Assembly (NCBI GenBank): GCA_017501225.1
Contig: JAFVXH010000006.1
Span: 882 to 64,881, forward strand
Direction: 5' to 3'
DNA from: Clostridia bacterium
GTDB taxonomy: Bacteria > Bacillota > Clostridia > Oscillospirales > CAG-272
DNA length: 64,000 nucleotides
The translations under genes were made by a program, and so were the position numbers. Positions 2,858 to 39,402 of the stretch are shown here, in pieces (position 1 is the first letter of the stretch; every line of letters begins with the position of its first letter). The notes under the pieces were generated by a model. That model made no database searches and had not been told where the DNA came from. It saw only the letters and a program-made list of their open reading frames with translations.

Positions 2858-2878
2858 TGGTGCGGGTAAGAGGACTTG
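2858..2878 (-). repeat. Third copy of the tRNA-Leu(CAG) 3' end (21 nt, CAAGTCCTCTTACCCGCACCA)
   Basis: Plus strand TGGTGCGGGTAAGAGGACTTG is identical to 3459-3479. Confidence 0.95.
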
Positions 2879-3159
2879 GTCTCGTCGCTACGACGCAAAG
2901 CCGAGGTTTTGATTTCGGCTTTGCTTCGCTCCTCGGTCAAGCGCGGCTCTGACAGTCCACCGGACTGTCATTCACTACCGCGCCCCTTCAAGTCCTTTTG
3001 TTCTATTCGCAGCAAACAAAAGACGGCACGCTGTTGCGTACCGTCTTTTGTTTGTGAAGGAGCGATAAAAAAGATATTTTACCTTTTTAATCGATGGATT
3101 TGAACCCAAATATAATTTAATGCTTTTCGACGGAAGGAGAAAAGCTTCCTTAGCACCTT

Positions 3160-3238
3160 TTCACTATTCACTTTTACCTATTACCTAATCGACAAGTTTC
3201 GTAAGAGAAGAGTGAAAAGTGAAGAGTTAAGAGTGAAG
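3160..3238. repeat. Two mutually inverted heptamer arrays
   Basis: TTCACTA TTCACTT TTACCTA TTACCTA (3160-3187) and AGTGAAA AGTGAAG AGTTAAG AGTGAAG (3211-3238). Confidence 0.8.
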
Positions 3239-3279
3239 AAGTAAAAATCGACAAGCTTCTGTCGAAACTTGTCGATTTT

Positions 3280-3303
3280 TGGTGCGGGTAAGAGGACTTG
3301 AAC
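3280..3303 (-). repeat. Second copy of the tRNA-Leu(CAG) 3' end (24 nt, T-loop to CCA)
   Basis: Plus strand TGGTGCGGGTAAGAGGACTTGAAC is identical to 3459-3482. Confidence 0.95.
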
Positions 3304-3420
3304 GCTCCACAAGCACCGCATAAAATGCGGCAGTCATCCAAGGTTTGGTTTTCGCGGTGCTCCATAGCGAATTTTGCAAGCAAAATCCGCGCGTGAAGAA
3401 CCGTCGGCTTTTGCCAAACC

Positions 3421-3459
3421 AACAGAAAAGGGATACGCGATGCGTATCCCTTTTCTGTT
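3421..3459 (-). terminator. Intrinsic terminator right after tRNA-Leu(CAG)
   Basis: AACAGAAAAGGGATACGC-gat-GCGTATCCCTTTTCTGTT perfect stem. Confidence 0.8.
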
Positions 3460-3545
3460 GGTGCGGGTAAGAGGACTTGAACCTCCACGAAGTTGCCCCC
3501 ACTAGAACCTGAATCTAGCGCGTCTGCCAATTCCGCCATACCCGC
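3459..3545 (-). tRNA. tRNA-Leu(CAG)
   Basis: GCGGGTATGGCGGAATTGGCAGACGCGCTAGATTCAGGTTCTAGTGGGGGCAACTTCGTGGAGGTTCAAGTCCTCTTACCCGCACCA; anticodon loop TTCAGGT, long variable arm, encoded CCA; TTGACA-17-TATAAT promoter at 3601-3573. Confidence 0.98.
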
Positions 3546-3988
3546 ATGTTGATTTTGTTATCAACAAATGAGATTATACCACATCAAAATCTCTTTGTCA
3601 ATAGTATTTTTAAGTTTTTTTGGATTATTTTACAACCGAGCGCAAAGCTTCTCGCAATCTTCACTTTTTTGCCGGATTTGAAAAAATATCGATTTTTGTC
3701 AAATCTCGCAAATTCCTTGATTTATTGGAAGGGCTGTGATACCGGGTCGTCAGCGATGCGCTTCTCCAAATCGAAGCACTCCCTCAGCAACCGTAAATCC
3801 CCCCGCCCCATGTGCGTGTTCTCCGTTAAGGATCATACGCATGTAGGGCGGGGTTTTGTCTGTTTTTGGGTTTTTCGCTCCACTTTGCCATCAAAACAAG
3901 GCTTATAAAAAAACTTTTCACCACCGTATTGACAAGGAATTTTCGGTATGATATAGTGAATTTGTAATCAAAAACAAGGGGGATAAAA

Positions 3989-6499
3989 ATGATGAAAAAA
4001 CTCGTTGCCGCTTTCCTGTGTCTGATCATGCTTCTGTCGCTTTTTTCTTGCAAAAAAGGAAGCACTGAAGGTATAGACAATCCCTCAGATCCCGATGGTA
4101 GTACCGCTTTAGATACCTCCATCAACTCAAACACCAACCCTACAAGTGCAAATTACGACTCCGTGTTGCGTGTCTATCGACGTATCGTTGACAGTTATCC
4201 GATCGTCAATCAGAATCCTCGTGCGGTCGCCGCAGAGCTTGGTATTCAAGATGAAGCCGAAATAGAATCTTTCGTTGACTTATATACATCTATCCTTCTG
4301 TTTTATCCCGGCAGAGGGCAAGAGGATCGCGTATCTCCTCACTATAAGCTTGGTTGCGGATATTCTGTAAAGGACCTCAACGGCGACGGCGTGGACGAGC
4401 TTGTTTTGATGAACAAGGATTATGCTGTTATGGCGATTTTCTCGTATGCCGACGGACATCCGGTTTTGCTCGGCAATTATTGGGAAAGAAATGTTTGCTG
4501 GATAGACGGTGACGGACTGATTCACAACCATGGAAGCAGTGGAGCAGATCGTTCGACCAATGCGCTCTATCAAATTGCCGACGGTGGCGACCGCCTCGAG
4601 CTGATTGCCGAGTTCGGTACCGACGGTCACGAATGGATAGACGGGGTTGCTTACACAAAATATTACAAGGTGGTAGATGGCGAAAAGGTTTCTATCACCG
4701 AAAGTGAATGTGCCGCGTTGGTTGAGCAATACGGAAAAGCCCTCGGTTCCGTGTCGGGAGCTGAGGCGACCAAGCAATATTCCGGCATGATCTTTACCTC
4801 GCTCTATACCGAAGCCGAGATCGCTATGGAAATGTACGAGGCGGCGATCAAAGGAGAAATCTGCGTTCTGGATGAGCGCTTAGGTGAGATAAAATTGAAG
4901 AACTGCCGTTTCCCGAGTGACAACGTAAGACTTGACGAATGTGAAATCCTTACCAAAGCAATTTTAGATATGGATCAGGACGGAATCAACGAATACGTGA
5001 TTCAATCCCAAGCAAAGGATCATATCGTATTACGCTACTATGATGGCACAGTTTACAGCTATTGCTTTGACAGCAAGAATTTCTTCAATTTGAATACCGA
5101 CGGTTCTTTTTATTGGATCGATTCTTGCGAATTAGATCATTGCACGCGCGGATACAGTCAAATCGCATTTGAGGGATCATCATTCAGTATCAAAGAAATA
5201 TACAGAATCAAACAGACAAGCCCCTATGATTACGGTGACGGTACCCATGAATATTATGTGGATGGTAAGCAGATCACGCGTGAAGAATTTCGGGATTATT
5301 GTGACTCCAATTGCAGAGGCAAAACAAGAGCGATCTTCTCTCCGCTTGATATTGATACTTCGTGTGAGTATCCGATCTCTTCGGAAAAAGCCTATGAGCT
5401 TGCTTCTGAGTTTTGGGGACTTCAAAGTGGAATGGAAGAGGGGGCTGCCGGAACACGTTATGTGCTCAACATCGTTGTATTGGAAAAGCCGAATAGCGAT
5501 ACACGGTGCTACCGCATCGGTTGTCAGTACGAAGGATATACGAACCACGTAATTGACAGCTTCTACGCTCAACCTCCGACGTCCGTCAGAATACATAAGG
5601 AATTAATTGTAAATGCCATAACGGGAGCGTGTCGGGATTCTATAGACCCCGAATTCGAAGCGGAAGCTGAGGTCGCTATGGAAATGTACGAGGCGGCGAT
5701 CAAGGGAGAAATCTGCGTTGTTGATGAGCACTCGGGTGAGATCAAATTAGAAGACTGCCGTTTCCCGAATAACAACGTAAGCCTCGAAGACTATGGAAGC
5801 CTTGACAAAGCGATCCTGGATATAGACGGCGACGGGATCAACGAATACGTGATCCGGTCACCCCAAAGAGATCATATTATTATGCGTTACTATGACGGCA
5901 AGATCTACAGTTATGGCTTTGATTTCAAAAGTCTTTTCAGGCTAAATACCGACGGAACGTTTTATTGGTATTCCGACGCCGGCGATTCAACGTCCAATTT
6001 GCCAACGGTCGGTTTGAGTCAGATCACGTTTCAGGATTCCTCTATCGTCATCAGGGAAATTTACAAGTTAAAAAATGTTTGTGAATATGCAGAAGAATAT
6101 TACCTTGACGGTTGCCGAGTGACACGGGAAGAATTTTTGGGTTACTACAACAAAAGTGATAAAACCTGGGTACAATTTTCTCCTTTTGAGTTTTCGTGTC
6201 AATATCCGATAACCGCTGAGAAGGCATGGAGTATTGCGGATGATTATTTGGGAAACCCGGATGGAGGACATGACGTCGCAACGGGAAAAACATACTTTTT
6301 CAAGGTCGTCATAACCGAAAAACCAACCGATGGCTCAGAATATTACATCGTGGTTGTGCAGCAATTTTGCTTTAGCCACATCTTCGACGGTTGGCAGATC
6401 TCAAACCCGGACCCTTTATATGAATTTGAAAGATTGGCTGTCAATGCAATCACCGGTGAGTGTTGGAAGTATGTAGATCCCGTTCCCGACGGAAAATGA
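3989..6499 (+). CDS. Multi-module lipoprotein with an internal ~284-aa duplication and DxDxDG motifs
   Basis: Lipobox LFSC; module AMEMYEAAIKGEICV..CRFP..KAILD.D.DGINEYVI occurs twice, 852 nt apart (4811 and 5663); promoter TTGACA-17-TATAGT at 3929-3957. Confidence 0.85.
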   Translation: MMKKLVAAFLCLIMLLSLFSCKKGSTEGIDNPSDPDGSTALDTSINSNTNPTSANYDSVLRVYRRIVDSYPIVNQNPRAVAAELGIQDEAEIESFVDLYTSILLFYPGRGQEDRVSPHYKLGCGYSVKDLNGDGVDELVLMNKDYAVMAIFSYADGHPVLLGNYWERNVCWIDGDGLIHNHGSSGADRSTNALYQIADGGDRLELIAEFGTDGHEWIDGVAYTKYYKVVDGEKVSITESECAALVEQYGKALGSVSGAEATKQYSGMIFTSLYTEAEIAMEMYEAAIKGEICVLDERLGEIKLKNCRFPSDNVRLDECEILTKAILDMDQDGINEYVIQSQAKDHIVLRYYDGTVYSYCFDSKNFFNLNTDGSFYWIDSCELDHCTRGYSQIAFEGSSFSIKEIYRIKQTSPYDYGDGTHEYYVDGKQITREEFRDYCDSNCRGKTRAIFSPLDIDTSCEYPISSEKAYELASEFWGLQSGMEEGAAGTRYVLNIVVLEKPNSDTRCYRIGCQYEGYTNHVIDSFYAQPPTSVRIHKELIVNAITGACRDSIDPEFEAEAEVAMEMYEAAIKGEICVVDEHSGEIKLEDCRFPNNNVSLEDYGSLDKAILDIDGDGINEYVIRSPQRDHIIMRYYDGKIYSYGFDFKSLFRLNTDGTFYWYSDAGDSTSNLPTVGLSQITFQDSSIVIREIYKLKNVCEYAEEYYLDGCRVTREEFLGYYNKSDKTWVQFSPFEFSCQYPITAEKAWSIADDYLGNPDGGHDVATGKTYFFKVVITEKPTDGSEYYIVVVQQFCFSHIFDGWQISNPDPLYEFERLAVNAITGECWKYVDPVPDGK

Positions 6500-6552
6500 C
6501 GTAACCGTTCACCGATTAAAATCTATTAAAATTTAAAATTCAGGAGGTCAAA

Positions 6553-7494
6553 ATGAGAAAAACCGCAGCCCTTGTTCTTTGCCTGATGATGATCCTGTCG
6601 CTCTTTTCGTGTGATGGAAGCGGCGACCAAGGTCCTTTGCCGACCGAACCGCCCGGCACCACCGCATCTCCCACGACTGAGGCGAGCACGACCGCTCCCC
6701 CTCAGGAAAATCCGGAGCCGACTCCCGAGGATGTCCAAAATGAGCTGGCGCTGCAAGCCTACGGCGCGGCGATCAGAAACGAGATCAACGTATATTACCC
6801 GTTGCTGAACAACGATACACCGACTGAAACTTATTTTGAAAGAATATGTGGCTCGGAAAAAGGCAATCCCATGCGTCAGGCACTGGTGGATATGGACCGG
6901 GACGGAATTGAAGAATTGATCTTGAAATATGGATCCTTTTTTGTCATTCTTCATTTCGAAAATAATAAGGTGTACGGAACCGATTTTCACTTTGGTGCCA
7001 TGGAAATGATCTATACCGACGGTTCTTTTTCCTGGAGTCATACTGACGATATGTTCGGATATGAATGCGGCATCAGCCGGGTTTCGTTCGCAAACGGAAT
7101 CATGAAAGTAGAAGAGCTTTGCAGAAAAGAAGGCGATTCCAGATTTTTTATCAGCGGTGCACAGGTTACAAAGGAGCAATACGATGACTATCTGGACGGT
7201 AACGAAAGAACCCCCGTTGACTTTGCTCCTTTTGATATCTATTTCCTTGATTCCGACGCATTAAAGGCAATAGAACTCGCTTCTGAATATTGGGGGATCA
7301 AGGACGGTGACTTTGATCCCGAAAGGGGACTTAGATACCGTGTGATCTGCAAGAGAAAAATAGATGAAGGACGCTACGAGGTTTCTTTGTACCGCTTTAT
7401 CTACAATCGCTCTTACGAGCATTTTGCACTTGCCACGGTGAACGTGGACACGGGAGAAATCACGGTGGAGAAATATCCAGACGGCAAGGGGTAA
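6553..7494 (+). CDS. Lipoprotein paralogous to the repeated module of the upstream gene
   Basis: Near-identical signal peptide (LCLMMILSLFSC), Pro/Thr linker, DMDRDGIEE, AIELASEYWG, ends PDGKG; AGGAGG RBS. Confidence 0.85.
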   Translation: MRKTAALVLCLMMILSLFSCDGSGDQGPLPTEPPGTTASPTTEASTTAPPQENPEPTPEDVQNELALQAYGAAIRNEINVYYPLLNNDTPTETYFERICGSEKGNPMRQALVDMDRDGIEELILKYGSFFVILHFENNKVYGTDFHFGAMEMIYTDGSFSWSHTDDMFGYECGISRVSFANGIMKVEELCRKEGDSRFFISGAQVTKEQYDDYLDGNERTPVDFAPFDIYFLDSDALKAIELASEYWGIKDGDFDPERGLRYRVICKRKIDEGRYEVSLYRFIYNRSYEHFALATVNVDTGEITVEKYPDGKG

Positions 7495-7676
7495 GCTGTT
7501 TTCGTCCGTTCCTCATTTTGACAGAACAAGCAAAAAATAGGTCGATTTTGCGCACTTTCCGTCCTGTCATTGACAACCCGTCTTGCCTTACAGTATAATA
7601 CTTTCGTAATGTTACCGCTCCCCGACGGTGTGATGCGCCCTTGGGGAGCGCGAGTATTTTAACTGAGAGGTTTTCA

Positions 7677-9068
7677 ATGGACAAGGTGATCGCCGCTCTG
7701 AACCGAGCGCTCGGCTTTGCGTACGATAATATTTTGAGCATTGCGATGCTGGTGCTCCTGATCGCCGCGGGAATTTTTCTTACGGTCAGGACGGGCTTTT
7801 TTCAATTCAGGCGCTTTGGCTACGTGCTTAAAAACACGGTAGGGAAGCTCTTTCACAATAATCTGCATCAAAAGGATTCCGGAAGCGTCAGCCCGTTCCA
7901 GGCAGTCACGACCGCGCTTGCGGGTACGATCGGCACGGGAAGCATCGCAGGTGTTGCGACGGCACTCGTCTTAGGCGGTCCCGGCGCGGTATTCTGGATG
8001 TGGGTGAGTGCTTTGTTCGGTATGGTGACCAAGTACTCCGAGATCCTGCTCGCCTTGAAATTCCGCGAAAAGAGCGAGAGCGGGGCGAATATTGGCGGTC
8101 CTATGTATTACATCGAAAAGGGACTTGGTGTCAAGTGGCTTGCCATGCTCTTTGCCGCGTTTGCCATGATCGCCTGCATCGGTACGGGCAACGCGACGCA
8201 ATCCAACTCCATTTCGGGCGTTCTGCATCTCAATTTCGGTGTAGCCCCCTGGATCACGGGATTGATTCTGACTGTGATCGTCGCAGTGGTCATCATCGGC
8301 GGTGTCAAAAGAATCGCGACGGTCAATGAAAAGCTGGTGCCCGTCATGGCGATCTTCTTTATCATTGCCGCCGCACTTGCACTGATCTTCCACGTTGGCA
8401 GAATTCCGCATGCATTTGCTTTGATTTTCAAGGAAGCGTTCAACTTCAGATCCGCCCTTGGCGGTGTTGCGGGATACGGTATCCTGTCGGCGATGCGCTA
8501 CGGTGTGGGCAGAGGAGTGTTCTCCAACGAGGCGGGTCTTGGCAGTGCCCCCATCGCGCACTCCGCATCCAGCGCCGAGGATCCCGTCAAGCAAGGACTG
8601 TGGGGCATTTTTGAGGTGTTTATCACGACCATCATCATCTGCACCATGTCGGCGCTTGTCATTCTGACCTCGGGAATCTATTCCTCCGCCTTTGACGCAG
8701 GACTTGCTCCCGACGTCAGCGGTGCGGCGCTCAGCAGTGCCGCGTTCGAGGAGGCACTCCCGCACGTGGGCGGTATCGGGATCGCCGTTTCCACCGTCTT
8801 TTTCGCGCTCTCGACCGTGCTCGGTTGGGCGTATTACGGAGAGGTGAGTGTGGGATATCTGTTCAGGAATCACTCCAAGGTAGCGATCACGGTTTACAGA
8901 GTGATCTACGTGGCATTCGTTTTCATCGGTGCGATCGCGGAGATCAATACCGTGTGGTTGATTGCCGATTGCTTCAATGCCCTCATGGCACTGCCGAACC
9001 TGATCGCCCTGATCGCGCTTTCCGGTCTTGTCGTAAAGATCACAAGGGAGCATTTTGCGAAGAAATAA
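7677..9068 (+). CDS. Sodium:alanine/glycine symporter (AgcS/AlsT family)
   Basis: PFQAVTTALAGTIGTGSIAGVATA, GGPGAVFWMWV, GGPMYYIEKG, RGVFSNEAGLGS, LMALPNL; promoter TTGACA-18-TATAAT at 7570-7599. Confidence 0.95.
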   Translation: MDKVIAALNRALGFAYDNILSIAMLVLLIAAGIFLTVRTGFFQFRRFGYVLKNTVGKLFHNNLHQKDSGSVSPFQAVTTALAGTIGTGSIAGVATALVLGGPGAVFWMWVSALFGMVTKYSEILLALKFREKSESGANIGGPMYYIEKGLGVKWLAMLFAAFAMIACIGTGNATQSNSISGVLHLNFGVAPWITGLILTVIVAVVIIGGVKRIATVNEKLVPVMAIFFIIAAALALIFHVGRIPHAFALIFKEAFNFRSALGGVAGYGILSAMRYGVGRGVFSNEAGLGSAPIAHSASSAEDPVKQGLWGIFEVFITTIIICTMSALVILTSGIYSSAFDAGLAPDVSGAALSSAAFEEALPHVGGIGIAVSTVFFALSTVLGWAYYGEVSVGYLFRNHSKVAITVYRVIYVAFVFIGAIAEINTVWLIADCFNALMALPNLIALIALSGLVVKITREHFAKK

Positions 9069-9079
9069 ACCAAAAACAG

Positions 9080-9114
9080 CGAGCCGATTGCAAACTGCAA
9101 TCGGCTCGTTTTTT
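9080..9114. terminator. Intrinsic terminator (bidirectional)
   Basis: CGAGCCGATTGCA-aac-TGCAATCGGCTCG plus T run. Confidence 0.8.
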
Positions 9115-9148
9115 GATTTGATTTTTTACAGGTGCATTTTCTTCTCGA

Positions 9149-10018
9149 TCAGATCTCCTCGTACGTAATACGCTCCTCCTTGCCGCTTTCCAGCGCGCGC
9201 ACAATGGCGTTCATGATAAAGACGGGAGCGATGAAGGTTTCGTACGGAGTGCTTTGAGTCTTTCCCGAGAGGAGGGAGTAGAATTCCTTGAATTCCTCGT
9301 AGAACCAGTCGCCCGTGATCGGGATCGTCAGGGCATTCGCGGCGTTTTGTGCCATACGGGAGGCAAAATAGACATAGCTTCCGTTACAGAACAGCCCCAC
9401 ACAGTCATAATTTTCATAGTGGAACAGAACGTGAATGTGACCGCCGTTCTCCCTTGCCGTGACCGAGATGGGGAAGTGCCCGAAGATCTCGCATACCATC
9501 TCCACAAGGTGCTGCGCGTAGAAATAGAAGCCGCCGTAGATGCTGTCCTTCTGGTAAGGGGCGCGGACATAACCGCCGAGCGTCCTTCCACCCACCTCGT
9601 TCTGCGCCTCCAGCTTGAGCTGCTTGACCAGCGCGTCCTGCTTTAAGGACGAGCCGCCCGATACGGGAGTGCCCTTGCTCTTCAGCGCGCGCATAAGGTC
9701 AACAGCCTCATCCTCACGGATGGTGATGGGCTTATCGATGAACATCGGGATGCCGCTCGCAAGGTAGGGCTTTGCGAATTTGCAGTGGCTGTCGCCGTGA
9801 CGTGCGGTGATCACAAGACCGTCGATCTTACCGACTGCGTCCGCATAATCGGTCAATATGGGCGTGCCGAACGTTTCCTTCAGCTTTTGCGCGGCGGCAG
9901 GATCGTCGCTGTATACGCCGACGACCTCGACGTCGCGAAATTCCTCTTTTTCACCGATGCATTTCAAAAAGGCGTCCGCGTGGGAATTTTCGCAGCCCAG
10001 GATTGCAATTTTTTTCAT
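9149..10018 (-). CDS. Gfo/Idh/MocA family oxidoreductase
   Basis: N-terminal KIAILG..SHA Rossmann start, ITARHGDSH, FIDKP motif. Confidence 0.85.
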   Translation of the reverse strand: MKKIAILGCENSHADAFLKCIGEKEEFRDVEVVGVYSDDPAAAQKLKETFGTPILTDYADAVGKIDGLVITARHGDSHCKFAKPYLASGIPMFIDKPITIREDEAVDLMRALKSKGTPVSGGSSLKQDALVKQLKLEAQNEVGGRTLGGYVRAPYQKDSIYGGFYFYAQHLVEMVCEIFGHFPISVTARENGGHIHVLFHYENYDCVGLFCNGSYVYFASRMAQNAANALTIPITGDWFYEEFKEFYSLLSGKTQSTPYETFIAPVFIMNAIVRALESGKEERITYEEI

Positions 10019-10072
10019 AACGTTCTCCTCATTTTCGATCCGATGAATTGAGAAATTGCTGCCAAGGGATTC

Positions 10073-11158
10073 TCAGCCTTGGTTGACGTAGGTTCCGACC
10101 ACCTTGAATTTGTCGCAGAAGCGGTGTATCATGTTGATCATGTTCTGACCTGCCTCGCTGTGAACGTCACCCTCAAGCTCCAGGTAGAAGTAATATTGCC
10201 ACAAAAGCTCCTTCATCGGACGGCTGCGCAGGGTGCGCATATTAAAGCCGTACAGACCGATGATGTCAAGTGCCTTTGCAAGCGCGCCCGCCTCGTTTTT
10301 GACGGTAAAGAGCACGATGGAGTGAACGCCGGGATGCTCCGTCGGGGGATTGTCCGAGCGCGAGAGCACTGCAAATCGGGTGGTATTTGCTCTGCCGGAA
10401 TTGATATTGCGCTCCAGCACGGTCAGAGAAAAGATCTGTGCCGCCTCCTCGCTGGCAATTGCCGCAACGCTGACGTCGCCAAGCTCTGAAACGTACTGAG
10501 CTGCCAGCGCCGTGTTTTCGTACTCAATGGTTTTGTATCCGCGCTCACTGATGAATTTTGCGCACTGCGCAAGTGCCTGCGGATGGCTGATGACCGTCTT
10601 GATATCCTCGCTCTTTGCGCCGGGGCAGACCAGAAGATCCTGCGACACCGTAAGATCGGTCATACAGTTGACGTACAGACTGCCCGAGAAGAGCAGATCC
10701 GTCACCTGTCCCACCTCGCCGCCTACGCTGTTTTCCACGGGAAGAACGGCTGCGTCGCACTCTCCGTTCTCAACCGCACGGTAGGCGGATATAAAATCTC
10801 CGTAGGGAACGGGGAGGGCGCTGGGGAAGAGCTTTTTCGTTGCGATGTGACCGAAAGCGCCGAGTGTGCCGCTGAAGGCAACCTTCATGCCCTCGATCAA
10901 TTTGGACTGATATGCCCGTGAAATTTTTACGGTGTCGCGGATGAAATTGACGTAGTAGGAACGCAGTTCCTCGTCTTTTACCCTGGCGGCAACCGCCCGA
11001 ATGATTTCTTCCTCACGATCTGCGTCGTAGATGGGAAGTCCGTGCTCCTTTTTGTATTCGGCGATGGCTTTGACAGCCTCCATTCTTTTGCAGAACAGCT
11101 GTGCGATCTCGCTGTCAACCTCGTCTATGATCTTTCTTGCGTTGTTTAATGAATCCAT
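10073..11158 (-). CDS. pheA: Bifunctional chorismate mutase/prephenate dehydratase
   Basis: AroQ domain (LNNARKIIDEVD..LFCKRM), PDT motifs (LPVENSVGG, SHPQALAQC, NTTRF) and ACT domain (NEAGALAKAL..SRP); start at MDSLNN; promoter TTGACA-17-TACAAT at 11253-11225. Confidence 0.95.
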   Translation of the reverse strand: MDSLNNARKIIDEVDSEIAQLFCKRMEAVKAIAEYKKEHGLPIYDADREEEIIRAVAARVKDEELRSYYVNFIRDTVKISRAYQSKLIEGMKVAFSGTLGAFGHIATKKLFPSALPVPYGDFISAYRAVENGECDAAVLPVENSVGGEVGQVTDLLFSGSLYVNCMTDLTVSQDLLVCPGAKSEDIKTVISHPQALAQCAKFISERGYKTIEYENTALAAQYVSELGDVSVAAIASEEAAQIFSLTVLERNINSGRANTTRFAVLSRSDNPPTEHPGVHSIVLFTVKNEAGALAKALDIIGLYGFNMRTLRSRPMKELLWQYYFYLELEGDVHSEAGQNMINMIHRFCDKFKVVGTYVNQG

Positions 11159-13422: not shown

Positions 13423-13430
13423 CAAAAAAA

Positions 13431-30064: not shown

Positions 30065-30117
30065 CAAACGAAAAGGGATTGTCAACGCCGCGTCCGTAGA
30101 TCGACGCGGCGTGATTT

Positions 30118-31197: not shown

Positions 31198-31461
31198 TTA
31201 CTGCAATGCGTTGAGCTTTTTGGTAAACTGGCTCTTCTTGTGAGCTGCGGCGTTCTTATGGATGATTCCGTAAGCGGCTGCCTGGTCAACCTTCTTAACG
31301 GCTGCCTTATAAGCTGCCTGCGCTGCTGCCATATCACCGGAAGCCAAAGCTGCGTCGTACTTCTTGATCTCGGTCTTCATAGCAGTACGGTACATCTTGT
31401 TTTGCATGGTTTTGGTTTGAATGACCTTAACTCTCTTTTTTGCGGATTTAATGTTCGGCAT
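31198..31461 (-). CDS. rpsT: 30S ribosomal protein S20
   Basis: MPNIKSAKKRVK...GIIHKNAAAHKKS; GGGAGGTG RBS. Confidence 0.97.
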   Translation of the reverse strand: MPNIKSAKKRVKVIQTKTMQNKMYRTAMKTEIKKYDAALASGDMAAAQAAYKAAVKKVDQAAAYGIIHKNAAAHKKSQFTKKLNALQ

Positions 31462-31640
31462 CGTTTTCACCTCCCTATCAGATTTTAGCACTTGATGCTG
31501 AAGAAAAACGGCGCCTGAGAGGGTGCGCTCATATTTTCATCCATACCCATGTAGTATAGCACATCCATTTCGGAATTGCAAGAGCTTTTTTGAATTTTTT
31601 TGATATTTTTTCAAAAATATTACGTGATTTTGTGTAATTC

Positions 31641-34265
31641 TTATCGGAATGCGGTTTTTCCGTCCTCCAGATAGACCTGTGTGCGCAGGATCGAGTAGCT
31701 TTCCTTTGAAGGGTCGCCCACAAGGATCAAGCCCTTGTCCTTTGCCGCCTTGATCAGAAGCTCGGGATTGAGATGATCGGTCATGCCCGCGCGCAGAAGC
31801 ACCGTGATGCGGACGGTATCCGAGAACGCGGAGGGGTAAACCGCCTTGATGGAGCGGATTCCTTGCGTCAGGTCGATCTCCTTTTCTCCCGATTTTGTTT
31901 TCTTCATCATCGGAACGGGGGAGGTCGTAAAGAAGCTGCAAAGCTTTTGCGGCAGCATGAGCGAGGCGTTTTCCAGATGCAGGGTGATCTCGTATTTTGC
32001 CCATCCGATGTCCTGGAATTTCGTGCTCGGCTCGTATGCCTCGAGAACGTACAGCTCGTGCGTCAGCTCGCGGTTGAGGCGCTCCTTGAGCTCTGCGGGA
32101 GAGATGTCCTTTGCCAAGCGCAGATCGATGAATTCGCATTCGCTTTCGGTTCCGACCGAGAGGGGAAGACCGAAGATGACCTTCGCATGCGGATTAAAGC
32201 CCTGCGTGTACCACATCGGGATCCCCGCGCGAACCAGAACGCGCGAGATCGTGCGTTGCAGATCCAGGTGCGAGATGTACTGCAGATTTCCGACCTTGCG
32301 GAACGCGATGCGAATGGTTTTGGGCGTTTCCAACGGCTTCCAATCGGGCAGCTCGCGCACAGCAGCCTCGGCGGGAGCAGAAGCATTGGGGGCAGTTTTG
32401 CATCCCGGGCATACGGCACGCACACCGCCCAAAGCGTTGGCACCGCACGCGGAGCATTGCTCGCGGCAGTTGGGAGTCGTGCTTGCGGCATACGCCTTTT
32501 CTCTCTCGCGGAGGAAGAATTCCTTGGTCACACCGCAGTCGATGATATCCCAGGGGAGCACCTCGTCCGTGCCCCACTTCCGATTGGCGTAGAAGGCGGG
32601 ATCAATGCCCGTGCGTTCAAAGACGGAAAGCCACTTGCCATAGTCGAAATACTCGTCCCACGCATCAAAGCAAAAGCCTTCCTTCTCGGCAAGCTCCAAG
32701 GCGGCACCAAGGCGTCGGTCACCGCGTGCCAAGACCGCTTCGATGTGGGAAACACGCGCGTCGTGGTGCTGATAACGCACGTGACGGTTGGTGATCTTGG
32801 AGCTAAGGTAGGCTTGCTTCTCCTCCAACATCTTCATGGTATCCTGCGCCTCCCACTGGAAGGGAGTAAAGGGCTTGGGGATAAAGCAGGCAACGCTGAT
32901 GGTGACCTGAACCTGGCGCGCGCGGTTGCGGTTGGGATTTTGATAGTACGCCTCGGCAACCTTATCGGCAAGTGCGGCGATGCCGTCCAGATCCTCGTAG
33001 GTTTCGGTAGGAAGTCCGTTCATAAAGTAAAGCTTGACGGCGTTTTTCTTGGCGTCGAATGCCACGTTGACGGCGCGCAGCACGTCCTCCTCGCGCACGT
33101 TTTTGTTGATGACGTCGCGCAATCTTTGCGTGCCCGCCTCAGGGGCAAAGGTCAGGGAGGAGGATCGTACCGAGTCGATGCGATCCATCAGCTCCTTGCG
33201 GAAGCTGTCCACACGCAGGGAGGGGAGGGAAAGACTGACCGTGTTCTCGTCGGTCCAGGAGAGCAGACGGTCGCAAAGAGGCTCCAGCTCGGTGTAATCG
33301 CTGATGGAAAGCGAGGACAGCGAGATCTCCTCGTATCCCGTGCTTCGGTAGAGCGCTTTTGCTTGCTCATTGAGCACCTCGGGCGTTTTCTCGCGCACAG
33401 GGCGGTAGATCATGCCTGCCTGACAGAAGCGGCATCCGCGAATGCATCCGCGATAGACCTCCAGCATGATGCGGTCGTGGACGGTTTCGATATAGGGCAT
33501 GACCAGACGGTCAGGGAAGGATACCTTGTCCAGATCTTTTATGATCTGCTTGCGGACCTGCCTCGGGATATCGTCATAGAGCGGCGCGTATTCCGCGATG
33601 GTACCGTCGGGGTTGTAGCGTACCTCATACAAGGAAGGAACGTACACGCCCTGAATGGTTTTTGCCGCCTCGTGAAGGAAGCCCTTACGGGTATAGGTAC
33701 CCTCCTCCTTCATTTTGATGTATAAGCGCACGATGGAGGGGAGCATATCCTCGCCCTCACCAATGTTGAACAGATCAAAGAAATCCGCGATGGGCTCGGG
33801 ATTGTAAGCGCAGGGACCTCCGCCGATGATCAGGGGCGCGTCCTCCGCGCGGTCCTTGCTCCGCAACGGGATTCCGCTCAAGCGAAGCATATTCAGAACG
33901 TTGGTGTAGCTCATCTCGTATTGCAGCGTAAAGCCCACGAAGTCGAACTCCGAGATGGGATCACCGCTTTCCAGGGCGCAGAGGGGAAGACCGTGCTTCT
34001 TCATCTCCTCCTGCATATCCACCCACGGAGTATAGGCGCGCTCGCACCAGATGTCGGGGTGCTCGTTGAGCGACGCGTAAAGCAATCTCACACCGAGGTT
34101 GGACATGCCGATCTCATACGTATCGGGGAAGCAGAAGGCAAATCTTGCCTTGACGTCCTTTTTGTCCTTGAGCACCTGACCGTACTCTCCTCCCGCATAG
34201 CGTCCCGGCTTGGAAACGGATTTGAGGATGGTGCTGTTTGGACGGTTGGTTTGGGGTTTGCTCAT
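31641..34265 (-). CDS. TIGR03960-type B12-binding radical SAM protein fused to a TIGR03936/DUF2344 radical-SAM-linked domain
   Basis: KPGRYAGGE, FPDTYEIGMSNLG, RGCIRGCRFCQAG (CxxxCxxC), TFAPEAGTQRLR; C-terminal YISHLDL..R..G..YTQGFNPH. Confidence 0.9.
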   Translation of the reverse strand: MSKPQTNRPNSTILKSVSKPGRYAGGEYGQVLKDKKDVKARFAFCFPDTYEIGMSNLGVRLLYASLNEHPDIWCERAYTPWVDMQEEMKKHGLPLCALESGDPISEFDFVGFTLQYEMSYTNVLNMLRLSGIPLRSKDRAEDAPLIIGGGPCAYNPEPIADFFDLFNIGEGEDMLPSIVRLYIKMKEEGTYTRKGFLHEAAKTIQGVYVPSLYEVRYNPDGTIAEYAPLYDDIPRQVRKQIIKDLDKVSFPDRLVMPYIETVHDRIMLEVYRGCIRGCRFCQAGMIYRPVREKTPEVLNEQAKALYRSTGYEEISLSSLSISDYTELEPLCDRLLSWTDENTVSLSLPSLRVDSFRKELMDRIDSVRSSSLTFAPEAGTQRLRDVINKNVREEDVLRAVNVAFDAKKNAVKLYFMNGLPTETYEDLDGIAALADKVAEAYYQNPNRNRARQVQVTISVACFIPKPFTPFQWEAQDTMKMLEEKQAYLSSKITNRHVRYQHHDARVSHIEAVLARGDRRLGAALELAEKEGFCFDAWDEYFDYGKWLSVFERTGIDPAFYANRKWGTDEVLPWDIIDCGVTKEFFLREREKAYAASTTPNCREQCSACGANALGGVRAVCPGCKTAPNASAPAEAAVRELPDWKPLETPKTIRIAFRKVGNLQYISHLDLQRTISRVLVRAGIPMWYTQGFNPHAKVIFGLPLSVGTESECEFIDLRLAKDISPAELKERLNRELTHELYVLEAYEPSTKFQDIGWAKYEITLHLENASLMLPQKLCSFFTTSPVPMMKKTKSGEKEIDLTQGIRSIKAVYPSAFSDTVRITVLLRAGMTDHLNPELLIKAAKDKGLILVGDPSKESYSILRTQVYLEDGKTAFR

Positions 34266-34326
34266 GAGATAGTCCTTTCTATACAAGCCAAACGCCTACC
34301 TTACGTAGGCGCTTGGAGCGTGTCGG

Positions 34327-37300
34327 TTATTTTTTCAGATAGAGCCTTGAGCGGTTGAGCTCGGTGTGTGAAGCGATGACGCCCACCAAAGTCCAGAATG
34401 CCTGATAGAGCACGATGGCAAGAATTCCAAGCATGTGTCCGTATCCAAGGAATGCGAGCAGCCCGGATGCTAAGAACGCAAGGATCGAGGAGATCACCTG
34501 CATCCGCATGCCAAAGCGGTGAACGGAGTGGATTCCGTTTGCGGCGGCAAGCACGCAGACCAGATCCTCCTCCGACTGTGTCGCGACGGCACCCGTGTCG
34601 ACCAGCTCCGCATCGGTCTTTTCCTCGTGATTTGCGGGATGGATGACGTGGATCGGATCGGTGTCCTCCCCGCAAAGAGCGAGCAGGAACGCGTCGTTCA
34701 GGGAAGGATTGTAGGTTCTGATCGCGACTGCGGTATTCTGATAGGACAGACGCTCGATGATGCTTTCAAATTCCTCCTTGACGGCATATTGGATCTCGTA
34801 GCGGAGCTTGATGCGTCCGTTGATGGCAACGTACAGAACGCTGACGTCCTTGGGGCGAGCGAGCGCCTGATCGGTGCTTTCCTTCGGCACCTTGATGCCG
34901 TTGCGAAGCAGGAAGGCGGCATCGCCGGCGAGAACGTGGGTATTGGTGTTGACGATTGCCTCAATTCCGCCCTCCGTTACGCGGACGATGGAGATGGGCG
35001 CATCGGCAAGGGGCCCCTTTGGAGGTGTTGCGATCTGACCCAGGGTTCCTCCCAGCTTACAGAACAAATGAGAAGCGATCTGCAGATCCTCCCCAAAGCC
35101 GTCACCGCGGGAGAGGAAGCTCTGCGTGTGGATCTTGGCAACCAGCAGGTCGGTATCGTCGAATATCACGGTATTTTTCTGCGAATATTCGCAAACCGCC
35201 TCCTCCCCGAGCAGGGTTGCCTTGCGCGTTGCGAGCAGTCTGTTTGCCAAAAACAGAGGGTAGAAATAATTGAACACCGCTCCTACGGGCGCGCAAAGAA
35301 GGACCAGCTTCATAAACAGGGAGAGAGATGCGAAGAAATCTCTTTGATAAACCGCGTAGGAGAATGCGAGCACGATGGAGAAGGCAAGCATCAGAATCAG
35401 CGTGACCGCGAACAGACGCACAGAGTCTCCCATGCTGTTGAAGCGGCGGAAGAAGCCGACACATTCCTTTGCGGGATGCACGCGGTAATGCGCCTCACCC
35501 GTTCCGTCATGGATCAGCTTGACGATCTTATTGCCCTGACGGAGCTTTTTCTTGCGGGGAGGAGCGGGCTCCAGCACCCATTTGCTTTCCTGAGAGGTCA
35601 GGAGCTGTGCCGCCGAAAGCTCACAGCAGAAGCGCAGGACGTCGCACAGCGCAGTGACGAGAAGCGTACAAAGCGCCAGGAAATTGGCGGGGAAGAGCGT
35701 CACGCTTGCGGGAACAAAGAGGGCGGCGATATCGTAAAGAAGCACAAGCGGAAGTAGCAGCGCGCTGACCGAGTACGGATTGGGCGCGAATTTGAGCAGC
35801 TGACGGATGCCCGCATTGAGCTGACGGTAGGAGAATGCCACGCCTACACCAAGGAGAAGGATCGCCAAAATCGGCAAGAGATAGGGATATGCGGTATCGT
35901 AAGCGACAAGTCTGCCTCCGACGAGCGTGGGGAATTCACAAAAGACAGCCAACAGAGTGACAAGAGAGGTCAGAACCGTGCGGATCAGGAGGATCTTCTT
36001 GTCATGCGAGTAGGCGGCAAGAATTTTCTCGCGGTTGTGTGTCCCCACGTTTTCCTCACCGCGATAGCCGATTGCGGTGCGGTAGTGCTTGTAATGCGTC
36101 TGACTCTTGCGGCGCAGATGCTCGTAGCGAAGCTGCTTGAGATCCTCGGAGCCGACGATGCGACCAAGCTCGTTTTCATAGCCTAATTCCATCACAAGTG
36201 CGATGTCATCCTCATCCAGTCCGCTGCGCTTCGTGATGCGCTCGTGGAGCGTCAAGGTGGAGTCAGGTGCTTCCTCGGCAGGACGCTCGGGGAGCTTCTT
36301 ATGCTGTTTTCTTGGGGTGGGTGCGGCGTTCGGCTCGGCGGTAGCGGCTTGCTCCGCGAAAGCCTTCTGTGCGGACTCTGCGGCGGGCTGCTCCGGTACG
36401 ACCTCGTCCAGAACCTCCTCCAGCGCTTCCTCTGCAGAGGGCAGAGCTTCTTTTTGGATCTCTACCGGCGTTTCTTGCTTTTTCACCACGCGGCGCTTTC
36501 CCGGGGTCGGGCGGGGCAGAGGCTTGGATGACGTTGCGGTCATCACGGTATCCTGCATCTTGCCCGATTCCTGCGGGGGATGTACCACCACGCGGGGGGG
36601 CGATGCCTTTGCGACCGAGGACGCCGCTGCTTTTTCTTCGGTTGTCGTTTGTTTGCTCATAGCCGTATTGCTTTTCCCCCCGATGCGGATCGGCACCTGA
36701 GAGGAAAACTCCTTTGAAGACTGTGGCGCATCCCCTCCACGCGTCACGCCTTTGGGCGATATCACGATGGGGCTTTGCGGCTCGTATGCGGGCGGACGAA
36801 TGACGATGGCGTCCCCCTGCTTTTCAAATTTCTTTTGTTCTGCGGGTGCGGTTTTCGTTTCTTTGGAAGTGATGCTCTCCGAGACCGGTGATTCTTCCGC
36901 AATCACATCTTCTATGATCGGTTCTTCAACGATCGGTTCTTCAACGATCGGTTCTTCAACGATCGGTTCTTCAACGATCGGTTCTTCAACGATCGGTTCC
37001 TCAACGGGAGGTGCCTTGGACTTTTCCTTTTTTGTGGGAGCCTTGCGCTTGCGCGCGGGCTTTTCGACCACGGGAGCGAGCTCCTCGGCAGATTTCTCGA
37101 CAAGCTCGGGATTGACCTCCTCGACGGGCTTTGCGACGGGTTCTCCGACAGATCCCTCGATAGATTCCTCAACGGGCATCTCTGCGGGTTCGGCATGCTC
37201 CTCAATCCCCTCTGCCACGCCTTCTTCAATCGACTCCTCAACGAGCTCCTCTATCTGTTCGGATTTCTCGGGAATCGGTGCGGAAGCGACCTTTTTCGAT

Positions 37301-37503
37301 GCCGTTTTTTTGTTTTTTTTGGAGGGCTTTTGCTCACCCTCGGCGGATGCCAGCGCCGTGCGGAGCTTGTCCGCAAGCTCGTCGTCGGTTTCCGTCCGTG
37401 TTGCCTTTTTTGCGGATTCCTTTTTCGGAGAATCCCCAAGGTAGGAAGCGCGCAGCTTTTTGAGGATATCGGATATTTTATTTTGCTCCTGTCCGGATTT
37501 CAT
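34327..37503 (-). CDS. Membrane protein resembling a degenerate P1B-type ATPase with a ~430-aa low-complexity N-terminus
   Basis: LLGEEAVCEYSQKNTVIFDDTDLL aligns with GEALExLxxVDTVVFDKTGTLT; VLYVAING..AVKEE..IERL..TAVAIRTYNP aligns with the P domain; about 8 TM. Confidence 0.7.
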   Translation of the reverse strand: MKSGQEQNKISDILKKLRASYLGDSPKKESAKKATRTETDDELADKLRTALASAEGEQKPSKKNKKTASKKVASAPIPEKSEQIEELVEESIEEGVAEGIEEHAEPAEMPVEESIEGSVGEPVAKPVEEVNPELVEKSAEELAPVVEKPARKRKAPTKKEKSKAPPVEEPIVEEPIVEEPIVEEPIVEEPIVEEPIIEDVIAEESPVSESITSKETKTAPAEQKKFEKQGDAIVIRPPAYEPQSPIVISPKGVTRGGDAPQSSKEFSSQVPIRIGGKSNTAMSKQTTTEEKAAASSVAKASPPRVVVHPPQESGKMQDTVMTATSSKPLPRPTPGKRRVVKKQETPVEIQKEALPSAEEALEEVLDEVVPEQPAAESAQKAFAEQAATAEPNAAPTPRKQHKKLPERPAEEAPDSTLTLHERITKRSGLDEDDIALVMELGYENELGRIVGSEDLKQLRYEHLRRKSQTHYKHYRTAIGYRGEENVGTHNREKILAAYSHDKKILLIRTVLTSLVTLLAVFCEFPTLVGGRLVAYDTAYPYLLPILAILLLGVGVAFSYRQLNAGIRQLLKFAPNPYSVSALLLPLVLLYDIAALFVPASVTLFPANFLALCTLLVTALCDVLRFCCELSAAQLLTSQESKWVLEPAPPRKKKLRQGNKIVKLIHDGTGEAHYRVHPAKECVGFFRRFNSMGDSVRLFAVTLILMLAFSIVLAFSYAVYQRDFFASLSLFMKLVLLCAPVGAVFNYFYPLFLANRLLATRKATLLGEEAVCEYSQKNTVIFDDTDLLVAKIHTQSFLSRGDGFGEDLQIASHLFCKLGGTLGQIATPPKGPLADAPISIVRVTEGGIEAIVNTNTHVLAGDAAFLLRNGIKVPKESTDQALARPKDVSVLYVAINGRIKLRYEIQYAVKEEFESIIERLSYQNTAVAIRTYNPSLNDAFLLALCGEDTDPIHVIHPANHEEKTDAELVDTGAVATQSEEDLVCVLAAANGIHSVHRFGMRMQVISSILAFLASGLLAFLGYGHMLGILAIVLYQAFWTLVGVIASHTELNRSRLYLKK
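36922..36996. repeat. Five exact tandem copies of a 15-bp unit (EEPIV)n
   Basis: TTCTTCAACGATCGG x5 with degenerate flanking copies. Confidence 0.95.
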
Positions 37504-37521
37504 GGGGCTCTCCTTTCACAT

Positions 37522-38439
37522 TTATTTTGGGTTGTGATGCTGATGCGCCACGTGTGCCAAGAAAATGGCGGCGGCGGTGGAAACGTTAAAGGAATTGACC
37601 TTTCCGTACATCTGAATGGATACGATGCCGTCGCAGGTCTTCTTGACCAGCTGGGAAACACCGTCCCCCTCACTGCCAAGCACGATGGCGCAGGGACCGC
37701 GGAAATCGGTCTGATACAGATCCTGACCGCCTGCCTCCGCGGCATAGGTCCAGACGCCCGCCTTTTTGAGCTGCTCGACGGTGCTTGCGATGTTGGCGAC
37801 CTTTGCGATGGCGAGATGCTCGATGGCTCCCGCCGATGCCTTGGATACCAAGGGGGTAAGACCTACTGCACGACGCTTCGGGATGATCAGTCCGTGCGCT
37901 CCGCAGCACTCGGCACAGCGGATGATGGCACCGAGATTATAGGGATCGGTGACACCGTCGCAAATGACGATCAGAGGTGCCTCGCCCCGCTCCTGCGCGA
38001 TGGCAAGGATATCCTCGACCGAGCAGTATTCCTTTTCGGCGGCAAACGCGATCACCCCCTGATGCGGAGCATACCCCGCAAGGGCGTCCAGCTTGGGCTT
38101 TTCGGTTTCGATGACGGGAATGCCGCGCTCGATCGCCTGCGCGACAAGGGCTACGATCGAGCCCGTGCGCTCACCGCGCTGAACCAGCAGCTTGTCCACG
38201 TCGCGCTCGGTACGAAGCAGCTCACGAACGGCGTTCCGTCCGATGATGGCGCCGTTTTCGTATTCGCCGTGGATGCTCTCGGAGGACGCGGCGTCCTTTT
38301 GCTGAATGGGTGCCTCTTTTTTTGGAGCGCGGGGAGGATGCTTTTCAAATTTGCGGTCCTTTCCCGCACCGCGGCGAAGCTCACCCGAGGATGTATGTTT
38401 TTTGCCGTAAAATTCTTTTTTTGACTTTTCCTGTTCCAT
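37522..38439 (-). CDS. rlmB: 23S rRNA (Gm2251) 2'-O-methyltransferase, TrmH/SpoU family
   Basis: IIGRNAVRE, HQGVIA, DGVTDPYNLGAIIR, KASAGA, LGSEGDGV, SFNVSTAA; start could be 38478. Confidence 0.92.
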   Translation of the reverse strand: MEQEKSKKEFYGKKHTSSGELRRGAGKDRKFEKHPPRAPKKEAPIQQKDAASSESIHGEYENGAIIGRNAVRELLRTERDVDKLLVQRGERTGSIVALVAQAIERGIPVIETEKPKLDALAGYAPHQGVIAFAAEKEYCSVEDILAIAQERGEAPLIVICDGVTDPYNLGAIIRCAECCGAHGLIIPKRRAVGLTPLVSKASAGAIEHLAIAKVANIASTVEQLKKAGVWTYAAEAGGQDLYQTDFRGPCAIVLGSEGDGVSQLVKKTCDGIVSIQMYGKVNSFNVSTAAAIFLAHVAHQHHNPK

Positions 38440-38726
38440 GGATGTCGGGCAGTCCTTTCCGTTTTTTTGGAAATCCAATCATATTACCCATATTATAACA
38501 TAAAAATTTCGGTTTGTATATAATATTTTTGCAAATATTCGGCGCAGAGGGCGGATTTTTGCTCGACAGAATTCGAAATGATGCGCAAAATGGGACGCGC
38601 GAGGGCAAAACGTGTTGAAACAGATCCTTTTTCGCTTACGGTGTGGAGTTACGAAAAAAATTGAAAAAAACAGAAAAAAAGGCTTGACAACCGAAAATCG
38701 GTGTGGTATGATATATAGGTCAGCAC

Positions 38727-38819
38727 GGAGAGATGGCTGAGCTGGTCTAAGGCGCACGACTGGAAATCGTGTGTTCGGCTAATAACCGACCGGGAGTTCG
38801 AATCTCCCTCTCTCCGCCA
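38727..38819 (+). tRNA. tRNA-Ser(GGA)
   Basis: GGAGAGATGGCTGAGCTGGTCTAAGGCGCACGACTGGAAATCGTGTGTTCGGCTAATAACCGACCGGGAGTTCGAATCTCCCTCTCTCCGCCA; promoter TTGACA-17-TATGAT at 38684-38712; terminator 38820-38860. Confidence 0.98.
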
Positions 38820-38995
38820 AAAACAAAGGCATCACCCAACAGGGAGGTGCCTTTGTTTTTGATGGAGAGCCGGTTGCGAGAATGCCCCGCATTTGCCAAA
38901 TGACAGAATGAGATCTTGGTATACAAAAGGGGCAAATGCACACGAGCAGAGGCGGACAGGACACCGCCGTCGCGCCGCAGGCGTGCTGCGAAGTT

Positions 38996-39022
38996 GAGTT
39001 CAGAATCTCCCTCTCTCCGCCA
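38996..39022 (+). repeat. Second copy of the tRNA-Ser 3' end with a 1-nt insertion in the T loop
   Basis: GAGTTCAGAATCTCCCTCTCTCCGCCA versus GAGTTCGAATCTCCCTCTCTCCGCCA. Confidence 0.93.
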
Positions 39023-39056
39023 AAAAATCCAACTCTAAGGAGTTGGATTTTTTCAT

Positions 39057-39245
39057 TTGTGCCGAGGGCACAACATCATTTGACCGGAGGTCAACATCGT
39101 TTCGGAGCGAGAAGTTGCTTCGCAACCTCGCGAGAACATCATTGCCGTGTTACGGCACAAATGAACGATGTTGCGACAAGTCGCAAATGATGTGCTTCGC
39201 AATGATGTGATGCTTCGCATCAATGAAGTTGCGCTCCGCGCAAAC
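39057..39245. other. Branched palindromic element (AACATCAT / ATGATGT units, each followed by a short hairpin)
   Basis: AACATC(A/G)T at 39072, 39093, 39135; complementary A(C/T)GA(T/A)GT at 39166, 39187, 39202, 39223; internal hairpins such as TTGACC-gga-GGTCAA and TGCGAC-aa-GTCGCA. Confidence 0.75.
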
Positions 39246-39382
39246 GGAAAGCGGGCGGTGCCTTTGTTTTTTGTGGAAAGAAGCACACGATGAAGAGCTC
39301 CGCGAATTGTCGCTTGCGGCAATTACGCCATAGCGTGCGCATAGATAAATAAGGGATTAAGGGCGCACGGTCGCGCACGCTT

Positions 39383-39402
39383 GAGTTCCGAATCTCCCAT
39401 CT
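39383..39402 (+). repeat. Third, degenerate copy of the tRNA-Ser 3' end
   Basis: GAGTTCCGAATCTCCCATCT, with an extra base at the same T-loop position as copy 2. Confidence 0.7.

Follow-up and report, generated by a model that had tools for sequence, protein, structure and literature searches.

The 3' ends of tRNA genes are the classical landing sites of genomic islands. The tyrT/rtT repeats of Escherichia coli (RF00391) encode, to our knowledge, no protein of known function and their purpose has been open since about 1980. In the E. coli genome NC_000913, a 19-nucleotide (nt) tail of tRNA-Tyr (AATCCTTCCCCCACCACCA), which starts midway along the T loop, is repeated at intervals of 178 nt behind tyrV, where the small RNA RttR is annotated. 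Cis-mobilizable elements (CIMEs) are segments without integration or transfer genes that are stacked by accretion at tRNA genes (PMC5704250). In Dehalococcoides, the tandem islands at ssrA have a 20-bp repeat that begins in mid T loop, a CcrB-like serine recombinase (DsiB), a conserved motif on the element side immediately upstream of the repeat, and integrase-less, CIME-like members (PMC3146451). Here, we describe short units without protein-coding genes that are built from tRNA 3' ends and follow tRNA-Leu(CAG) and tRNA-Ser(GGA) in 64,000 nt of DNA from an uncultured gut Clostridia bacterium (GCA_017501225.1, contig JAFVXH010000006.1, positions 882 to 64,881; hereafter, the window), which is part of a 1.74-Mb genome in 23 contigs. 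Window coordinates carry the prefix w; other sequences are given by genome (G) and contig (C) labels, with G000 being the genome studied.

ARAGORN and Rfam agreed on three tRNA genes in the window. A repeat search located the 3' end of tRNA-Leu(CAG) in three copies (w3453-3479, w3274-3300 and w2852-2878), which are spaced 179 and 422 nt apart and have the core TGGTGCGGGTAAGAGGACTTG in common. By the same search, the tail of tRNA-Ser(GGA) is present as a 24-nt exact copy (w38800-38823 and w39003-39026), and a third tail (TTGAGTTC-C-GAATCTCCCATC, w39381-39398) lies behind a spacer of ~330 nt that follows the second Ser terminator. The first-pass annotation of this DNA had read two extra T-loop-to-CCA copies behind each of these two genes, and the repeat search agrees, with the third Ser copy being degenerate. 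By chance, exact matches of 21-24 nt within 600 nt would be expected ~1e-10 times; because exact repeats this close together exceed chance by far, we conclude that the tails of tRNA-Leu(CAG) and tRNA-Ser(GGA) are duplicated. The tail copies at both loci terminate in CCA and each is then followed by its own A-run/T-run hairpin. Direct inspection of the 143-422-nt stretches between the tail repeats identified no integration or transfer genes, and the open reading frames (ORFs) in w3174-3539 overlap the tRNA gene and the repeats; within what was inspected, the earlier statement that the window contains no integrase holds. Beyond the tRNAs, Rfam gave no match at the gathering threshold in the whole window or at E<=1 at the two tail-copy loci. 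Similarly, the RF00391 model had 0 matches at the gathering threshold in the window and at E<=1 at both loci, and a literature search using the element sequence returned nothing relevant.

A scan for tail copies that covered the 3' end of every tRNA gene in the genome (40 genes) detected tail fragments at ~13 of the 40 as well as at the tmRNA gene, behind which there is a unit. Direct tail copies of 20-27 nt with a fixed start after the TTC of the T loop and extending to CCA are present at eight or more tRNAs (>=8); such copies from the mid T loop to CCA were found at Pro, Ala, Leu(TAG), Leu(CAG), Ser(GGA), Lys, Met and tmRNA, and those of Pro(TGG), Ala(GGC) and Leu(TAG) also lie 143-203 nt downstream of the gene. 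Moreover, tail fragments were detected at Gln(CTG), Met, Asn, Pro(GGG) and Arg(CCG), and inverted tail copies directly beyond the terminator at Gly(CCC), Trp and Gln(TTG). Contig G000:C8:1-160 opens with tRNA-Gln(CTG), its terminator and a perfect inverted copy of that tRNA end, which is either a true palindrome or an assembly fold-back at the end of the contig.

The spacers between the tails are a mix of S units, a CTTCACT palindromic family and a family that we refer to as 'zipper'. An S unit is 143-203 nt in length and consists of a tail copy, a private A-run/T-run terminator and a body of ~100 nt, which has two hairpins, H1 and H2 (the tip of H2 being variable), and a conserved right end (..TTG-RR-GTTC), mostly with one additional base between GTTC and the next tail. 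In none of the units did we see a fragment of an integrase or a cargo gene. The units have no internal promoter and a strong terminator separates the tRNA from each unit; therefore, any RNA of a unit must arise by read-through. The array at Leu(TAG) consists of two homologous bodies, and a body core is common to the tRNA-Ala and tmRNA loci (86% identity over 73 nt), in each case with the tail of the local gene. At the Trp and Gly loci, the layout is unit-gene-unit (G000:C16:9650-10960 and G000:C11:10750-12100) and the cargo genes encode small membrane proteins of 172-177 amino acids (aa) without a Pfam match. The idea that the 5' part of a body is a decayed cognate tail was rejected, as the rank of the cognate tail was random except at Trp, Gly and Gln(TTG), which have clear inverted tails.

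Minimum free energy folds of the bodies at Ala, tmRNA, two Pro loci, Ser unit 2 and Lys are three-way junctions closed by GRRCYY...RRGTTC, and the closing helices are cognate-specific, i.e. the cognate head/tail pair is better than non-cognate pairs (permutation p=0.0004). The body of the first unit behind tRNA-Leu(CAG), referred to as S1, was compared in eight orthologous Leu(CAG) units. In its helices P1 and H2, 95% of the cells are paired vs 38-61% with slid partners; compensatory changes were present in four pairs, and invariant G-U pairs are compatible with the tRNA-sense strand only. These eight sequences, which are related, provide moderate evidence that S1 bodies are selected for their fold on the tRNA-sense strand. 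Across species whose flanking DNA can no longer be aligned, the block comprising the tRNA, its terminator and S1 retains 86-90% identity (79% in G077). That S1 might be a dispersed repeat was also considered and rejected: a genome has one copy, and the 7 strong matches in 78 genomes are at no site other than tRNA-Leu(CAG). In total, several results say that the units are more than scars: S1 is locus-bound, conserved and covarying, and decayed cognate tails do not explain the 5' portions of the bodies.

Orthologous tRNA-Leu(CAG) loci in 30 genomes of the genus have 0, 1 or 2 units with at least three body types, and the bodies S1 and S3 are in opposite order in G069 and G068 (85% and 78% identity). 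Because the units differ in number and type and the order of S1 and S3 swaps between species, these comparisons argue for arrays that were probably assembled from discrete modules and not inherited as one array. Thus, the proposal in the first-pass annotation of short protein-less, tail-built units in tandem is supported, as units recur at other tRNAs and their number and kind differ between species.

In their anatomy, the units are like tyrT/rtT, in which the tRNA is followed by ~178-nt units ending in a tail that starts in the mid T loop. However, the repeats of E. coli stand in tandem as almost identical copies whose tails are not each followed by a terminator, whereas the units described here are mostly mutually unrelated, have private terminators and, in most pseudo T loops, an extra base, and lack similarity to Rfam families. 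Like CIMEs, they form gene-less segments flanked by tails in tandem at a tRNA 3' end with the newest nearest to the gene; by contrast, the known CIMEs are decayed integrative and conjugative or integrative and mobilizable elements on the kilobase scale, while the units are 145-200 nt, have no traces of genes and have a conserved fold. On the basis of this comparison, the best reading is that the units resemble CIME remnants with tyrT/rtT anatomy and would represent a variant of both.

The tRNA-Leu(CAG) gene (w3459-3545) and the features that follow it are on the minus strand, and the gene has a consensus promoter (TTGACA-17-TATAAT, w3573-3601). Its terminator hairpin, T(ACAG), at w3418-3462 has a 21-bp perfect stem that begins within ACCA, and this hairpin was found ahead of the S1 body in four species. 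The S1 body of unit 1 is the 118-nt spacer at w3303-3420 and its three-way junction is formed by P1 (CTTCAC/GTGGAG), H1 (GCGGATTTTGCTTGCAAAATTCGC) and H2 (GAGCACCGCG..CGCGGTGCTT). In the second tail (w3280-3303), a pseudo T arm that is longer by one base precedes the acceptor 3' strand and CCA; this copy reads ..GGAG-C-GTTCAAGTCCTCTTACCCGCACCA and is followed by a new hairpin and then by ~400 nt more of spacer. Behind this tail lies a CTTCACT palindromic element (w3121-3280), next to an extension (w3013-3120) that matches the start of contig C16 with 96% identity and contains the T-loop-like sequence GGGTTCAAATCC, the sequence AAAATATCTTTTTT and a hairpin (w3013-3054). The body of unit 3 (w2879-3012) contains a degenerate inverted tail (AAAAGGACTTGAA) and a nested hairpin (GCGCGG..GACAGTCC..GGACTGTC..CCGCGC), and has a homologue behind the tRNA-Leu(CAG) gene of G023. 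Finally, the third tail (CCAAGTCCTCTTACCCGCACCA, w2858-2878) and the last terminator occupy w2805-2878, after which comes a gene for an MscS-type channel. Units 1-3 are mutually unrelated and every unit body is single-copy in the genome.

The tRNA-Ser(GGA) gene (w38727-38819) is on the plus strand, as are the units behind it; its promoter is at w38684-38712 and the arms of its terminator extend to w38869. The body of Ser unit 1, a 137-nt spacer at w38861-38997, is single-copy in the genome. The second tail (w38998-39053) reads GTTC-A-GAATCTCCCTCTCTCCGCCA; its T loop is longer by one A, and it has a terminator of its own (w39022-39053). It is followed by a zipper element (w39052-39245), which is made of AACATCATT motifs and small side hairpins. 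In the last segment (w39253-39402), the right arm of the first terminator appears again (w39253-39280) and is followed by an S2-like body (GCCATAGCGTGCGC..GCGCACGC, with the closing pair GAGCTC/GAGTTC) and the degenerate third tail.

Both the CTTCACT and the zipper families are dispersed and multi-copy, and have internal inverted arrays. A CTTCACT element consists, in order, of a hairpin a/a' that touches CCA, (CTTCACT)n, a'', which is a second complement of a, (AGTAATA/AGTGAAN)n, and a hairpin GCTTTTC..GAAAAGC. It is present at 11 loci in the genome studied and in 28 of the 41 genomes searched (27/40 relatives and the genome studied), covering 10 of the 17 genera of the order, and also occurs at sites without a tRNA, e.g. 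behind the groEL terminator of G001. Its six subfamilies differ in their a hairpins, and in every one a'' comes after a'; the longest common string has a mean length of 9.8 nt for cognate and 5.1 nt for non-cognate comparisons. In the zipper, the AACATCATT motifs alternate with hairpins of 4-7 bp and the second half is mirrored; in relatives it is dispersed in up to 7 copies, always immediately after the T run of a terminator, twice behind tRNA-Gln and otherwise at other genes. For neither family did we find a target-site duplication or an empty site for comparison. The best reading is that CTTCACT and zipper are two unrelated, terminator-associated palindromic families that have also settled in gene-free tRNA tails.

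A 0.6-kb module, seen in two genomes, has a CTTCACT element at its head, together with a promoter (TTGAAA-17-TATAAT) and a gene for a four-helix-bundle protein of the type found in 23S rRNA intervening sequences (PF05635). It is 82% identical in two contexts, i.e. behind tRNA-Tyr (G000:C9:18518-19114) and behind the groEL terminator (G001, L006 1452-2026), and looks like a small mobile gene cassette. The site downstream of groEL in G000 was tried as an empty site for this module and rejected, as the sequence there differs. In G020:C13:12000-24182, two blocks of ~470 nt, each comprising a CTTCACT element, a tRNA-Lys unit and a second CTTCACT element, stand in inverted orientation on either side of 9 kb with genes for a regulator of the TetR type and a surface protein of 2522 aa with leucine-rich repeats.

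The third tRNA gene in the window, tRNA-Leu(CAA) (w23643-23729, plus strand, with a terminator extending to w23756), had no tail copy downstream. A gene for a protein resembling the Y1/HUH transposases associated with repetitive extragenic palindromes (REPs), known as RAYTs, is located 170 nt behind this tRNA gene (w23898-24413, plus strand). This placement is as the first-pass annotation had it. The protein scores below the curated cut-offs (NF047646, E=1e-18 and 67.6 bits with an 80-bit cut-off; PF01797, 21.7 bits with a 23-bit cut-off); HVH and YIYENP motifs can be seen in its sequence. The REP of this RAYT, a GTAG foot together with GGGCGACCNNNGGTCGCCC, occurs at ~9 genomic loci, none of which falls in a tRNA spacer. 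An inverted pair of GTAG-REPs lies inside the RAYT ORF itself (w23908-23938 and w24207-24237, 299 nt apart), and close relatives (L057-L067) also have an intragenic REP pair in the RAYT gene, 171 nt apart.

REPs, and the bacterial interspersed mosaic elements (BIMEs) and REPINs composed of them, are short palindromic extragenic repeats like those described here, and a RAYT-like gene and a GTAG-REP family exist in this genome; however, neither the tRNA units nor the CTTCACT and zipper elements have the GTAG-hairpin module or co-occur with RAYT. The earlier claim of REP-like material behind all three tRNAs is loosely put: the hairpins at Leu(CAG) and Ser(GGA) differ in sequence from the GTAG-foot hairpin and do not belong to the RAYT's REP family. 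RAYT is present in 25 of 61 genomes of the genus and adjoins a tRNA at 1 of 20 loci in the genus, namely only in the genome studied; moreover, units are found in the RAYT-less genomes G044 (94% complete), G021 (95%), G069 and G065. The CTTCACT element shows no association with RAYT, which is present in 10 of 18 genomes with the element and in 2 of 6 without it. The suggested co-occurrence of the elements with this RAYT clade thus did not materialize, and we conclude that the RAYT and its REPs are a separate system that is not linked to the tRNA-tail units.

The genome has four matches to tyrosine recombinases and four genes for serine recombinases, three of which are large. The larger recombinase islands sit beside the units and not around them. 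The tRNA-Met island (G000:C9:28800-34529) carries a MazF-like gene and three consecutive serine recombinase genes (518, 303 and 545 aa), and a fragment of the tRNA-Met tail, with its start in mid T loop, lies 286 nt beyond the end of this trio. G003 has an intact tRNA-Met at the corresponding position; because no overlap was found between the end of C9 and the start of C19 when we tried to close this island, the link is based on the comparison with G003. The tRNA-Asn island (G000:C19:36400-42900) is 5.9 kb in length and has at its end a gene for a 527-aa serine recombinase, the stop codon of which overlaps the tRNA-Asn tail repeat AGGGGGAGCCA; beyond this island lie an older S-like unit and then a CTTCACT element. 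Finally, a tyrosine integrase is encoded behind tRNA-Pro(GGG), and the presumed far end of this island is in front of an S unit. The repeat boundary of the tRNA-Met island is the same as that of the Dehalococcoides ssrA islands, which are 10-30 kb and have one target, whereas here many tRNAs and tiny units are involved. By comparison with these described systems, the islands and units at tRNA ends match CIME accretion and closely parallel the Dehalococcoides islands. The same genome's islands stack at tRNA ends (Met, Asn and Pro(GGG)) and the Met repeat shares the mid-T-loop start; thus, the suggestion that the units are served by an integrase elsewhere in the genome is plausible.

A pseudo tRNA-Asn 3' half at G000:C19:~36700-36760 (minus strand) has three single-base insertions, an inserted hairpin and 0 substitutions; a difference by insertions only is an odd pattern for neutral decay, and extra T-loop bases recur in most units. 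A retro-element or casposon-like origin of the units was considered and is unlikely, as the genome has neither a reverse transcriptase (PF00078) nor Cas1. In three relatives (G005, G066 and G074), tRNA-Leu(CAG) is separated by recombinase-free islets of 0.9-2.9 kb from a 54-nt repeat that spans from the anticodon loop to CCA and has a conserved junction motif. Moreover, bases 1-39 of tRNA-Leu(CAG), its 5' half, recur ~130 nt upstream of the gene in L076 (G066:C38) and L081 (G007:C17), where they are joined to GATGTCACCTCGGTGA; this sequence is the inverse of TCACCGAGGT, a motif that other species have at their 54-nt 3' repeats. Such an arrangement points to a putative second recombination system acting at the anticodon loop.

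We assign a probability of roughly one half to the reading that the units are integrase-less mini-cassettes, which are stacked at the T loop and the bodies of which are under selection for their fold. In this scenario, the tail copies would be the direct repeats that bound small integrase-less cassettes at the tRNA T loop. Each cassette would bring a tail that replaces the old one between mid T loop and CCA, an intrinsic terminator of its own that would keep the tRNA gene intact, and a ~100-nt body that would form a three-way junction ending in a pseudo T-arm half (..TTG-RR-GTTC, mostly with one extra base), while the older tail would be displaced outward and decay. Cassettes may be gained, lost and shuffled through recombination at the tail repeats, with a recombinase acting in trans, most likely an island-borne serine or tyrosine recombinase of the same genome; alternatively, homologous exchange between tails might suffice. 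The fold of the body could serve as an rtT-like read-through RNA or as a recombination site. Several points weigh against this reading. A crossover in the T loop requires that the right tail is already on the element, so that jumps between different tRNAs, e.g. from Ala to tmRNA, are hard to explain unless a further step is assumed. Nor does standard recombination of the serine or tyrosine type predict that an additional base recurs in the pseudo T loop. BLAST and genome searches identified no larger element carrying a unit body and no full-length parent, and no short unit has a linked recombinase. Both window loci are letter-identical in all conspecific metagenome contigs that span them (3-4 contigs), and, therefore, no present-day mobility is shown; the polymorphism among strains that the first-pass annotation had looked to is absent at both loci in these few contigs. 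Finally, a resident functional RNA would account for the strong conservation of S1 and its covariation as well as a mobile element does, and the covariation sample is small, comprising eight related sequences.

That the units are resident rtT-like RNAs is possible, if on the unlikely side: they would be distal parts of tRNA operons that arose by local duplication and unequal crossing-over between tail copies without a site-specific recombinase. Read-through would transcribe them, tRNA-processing enzymes would cut them free at the tRNA-like tail, and they would be retained for a function as RNA. This explanation is in line with an anatomy equal to that of E. coli tyrT/tyrV, with an S1 body that is single-copy, locus-bound and much better conserved than its flanks and has compensatory changes and sense-strand G-U pairs in its fold, with loci that are invariant within the species, and with the two homologous bodies at Leu(TAG); however, it is at odds with the strong terminator before every unit and the lack of an internal promoter, with arrays that are mostly heterogeneous rather than duplicated, with the swap in unit order between species, with the presence of one core at both tRNA-Ala and tmRNA, with units that flank cargo genes, and with the lack of a match to RF00391 and all other Rfam families. 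We consider it improbable that the units are neutral scars, i.e. remnants of large integrase-bearing islands that integrated at the tRNA and have been deleted nearly in full, and that have neither a function nor mobility of their own. Degenerate distal tails, recombinase islands ahead of older short units at tRNA-Met, tRNA-Asn and tRNA-Pro(GGG), and the absence of polymorphism within the species would fit such scars, but the units at eight or more tRNAs have one architecture and a narrow size range (143-203 nt), their bodies covary and are conserved where the flanks are not, their 5' parts are not decayed cognate tails, and fragments of integrases or cargo genes were not seen in them. Least probable by far is the system originally proposed, in which a tRNA-linked RAYT would cut hairpin spacers as REP-like substrates and spread them as single-stranded DNA. 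The RAYT-like gene 170 nt behind tRNA-Leu(CAA) and the hairpin-rich spacers speak for it; against it stand the location of the RAYT's own REPs, which are never in a tRNA spacer, the units without a GTAG-foot hairpin, the single case of tRNA adjacency among 20 loci, the units in RAYT-less genomes such as G044 and G021, and the CTTCACT element that is not tied to RAYT. Moreover, we know of no case in which Y1 transposition (IS200/IS605, REP/RAYT) yields direct repeats of 20-27 nt, which also counts against a role of RAYT.

A further proposal, which goes beyond the reading as stacked mini-cassettes and which we put forward as rather doubtful, is that the units form a class of their own. They would be miniature site-specific cassettes that rewrite tRNA ends with a new tail and terminator, the arrays would be ordered records of serial acquisition, common across gut Clostridia and beyond, and the conserved three-way-junction body would do the work, either as a folded recombination site like the attC of integrons or as an rtT-like RNA. 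At a practical level, tail copies, orphan terminators and hairpin ladders behind tRNAs can be annotated as defined modules and not as REPs or a RAYT system. At about a third of its tRNA genes, this genome has an anatomy of the tyrT/rtT type that is modular, conserved in fold and variable between species. If the units were mobile or made an RNA, they would offer a tractable route to the purpose of tRNA-tail repeats and to the way in which integrase-less elements stack at tRNA genes.

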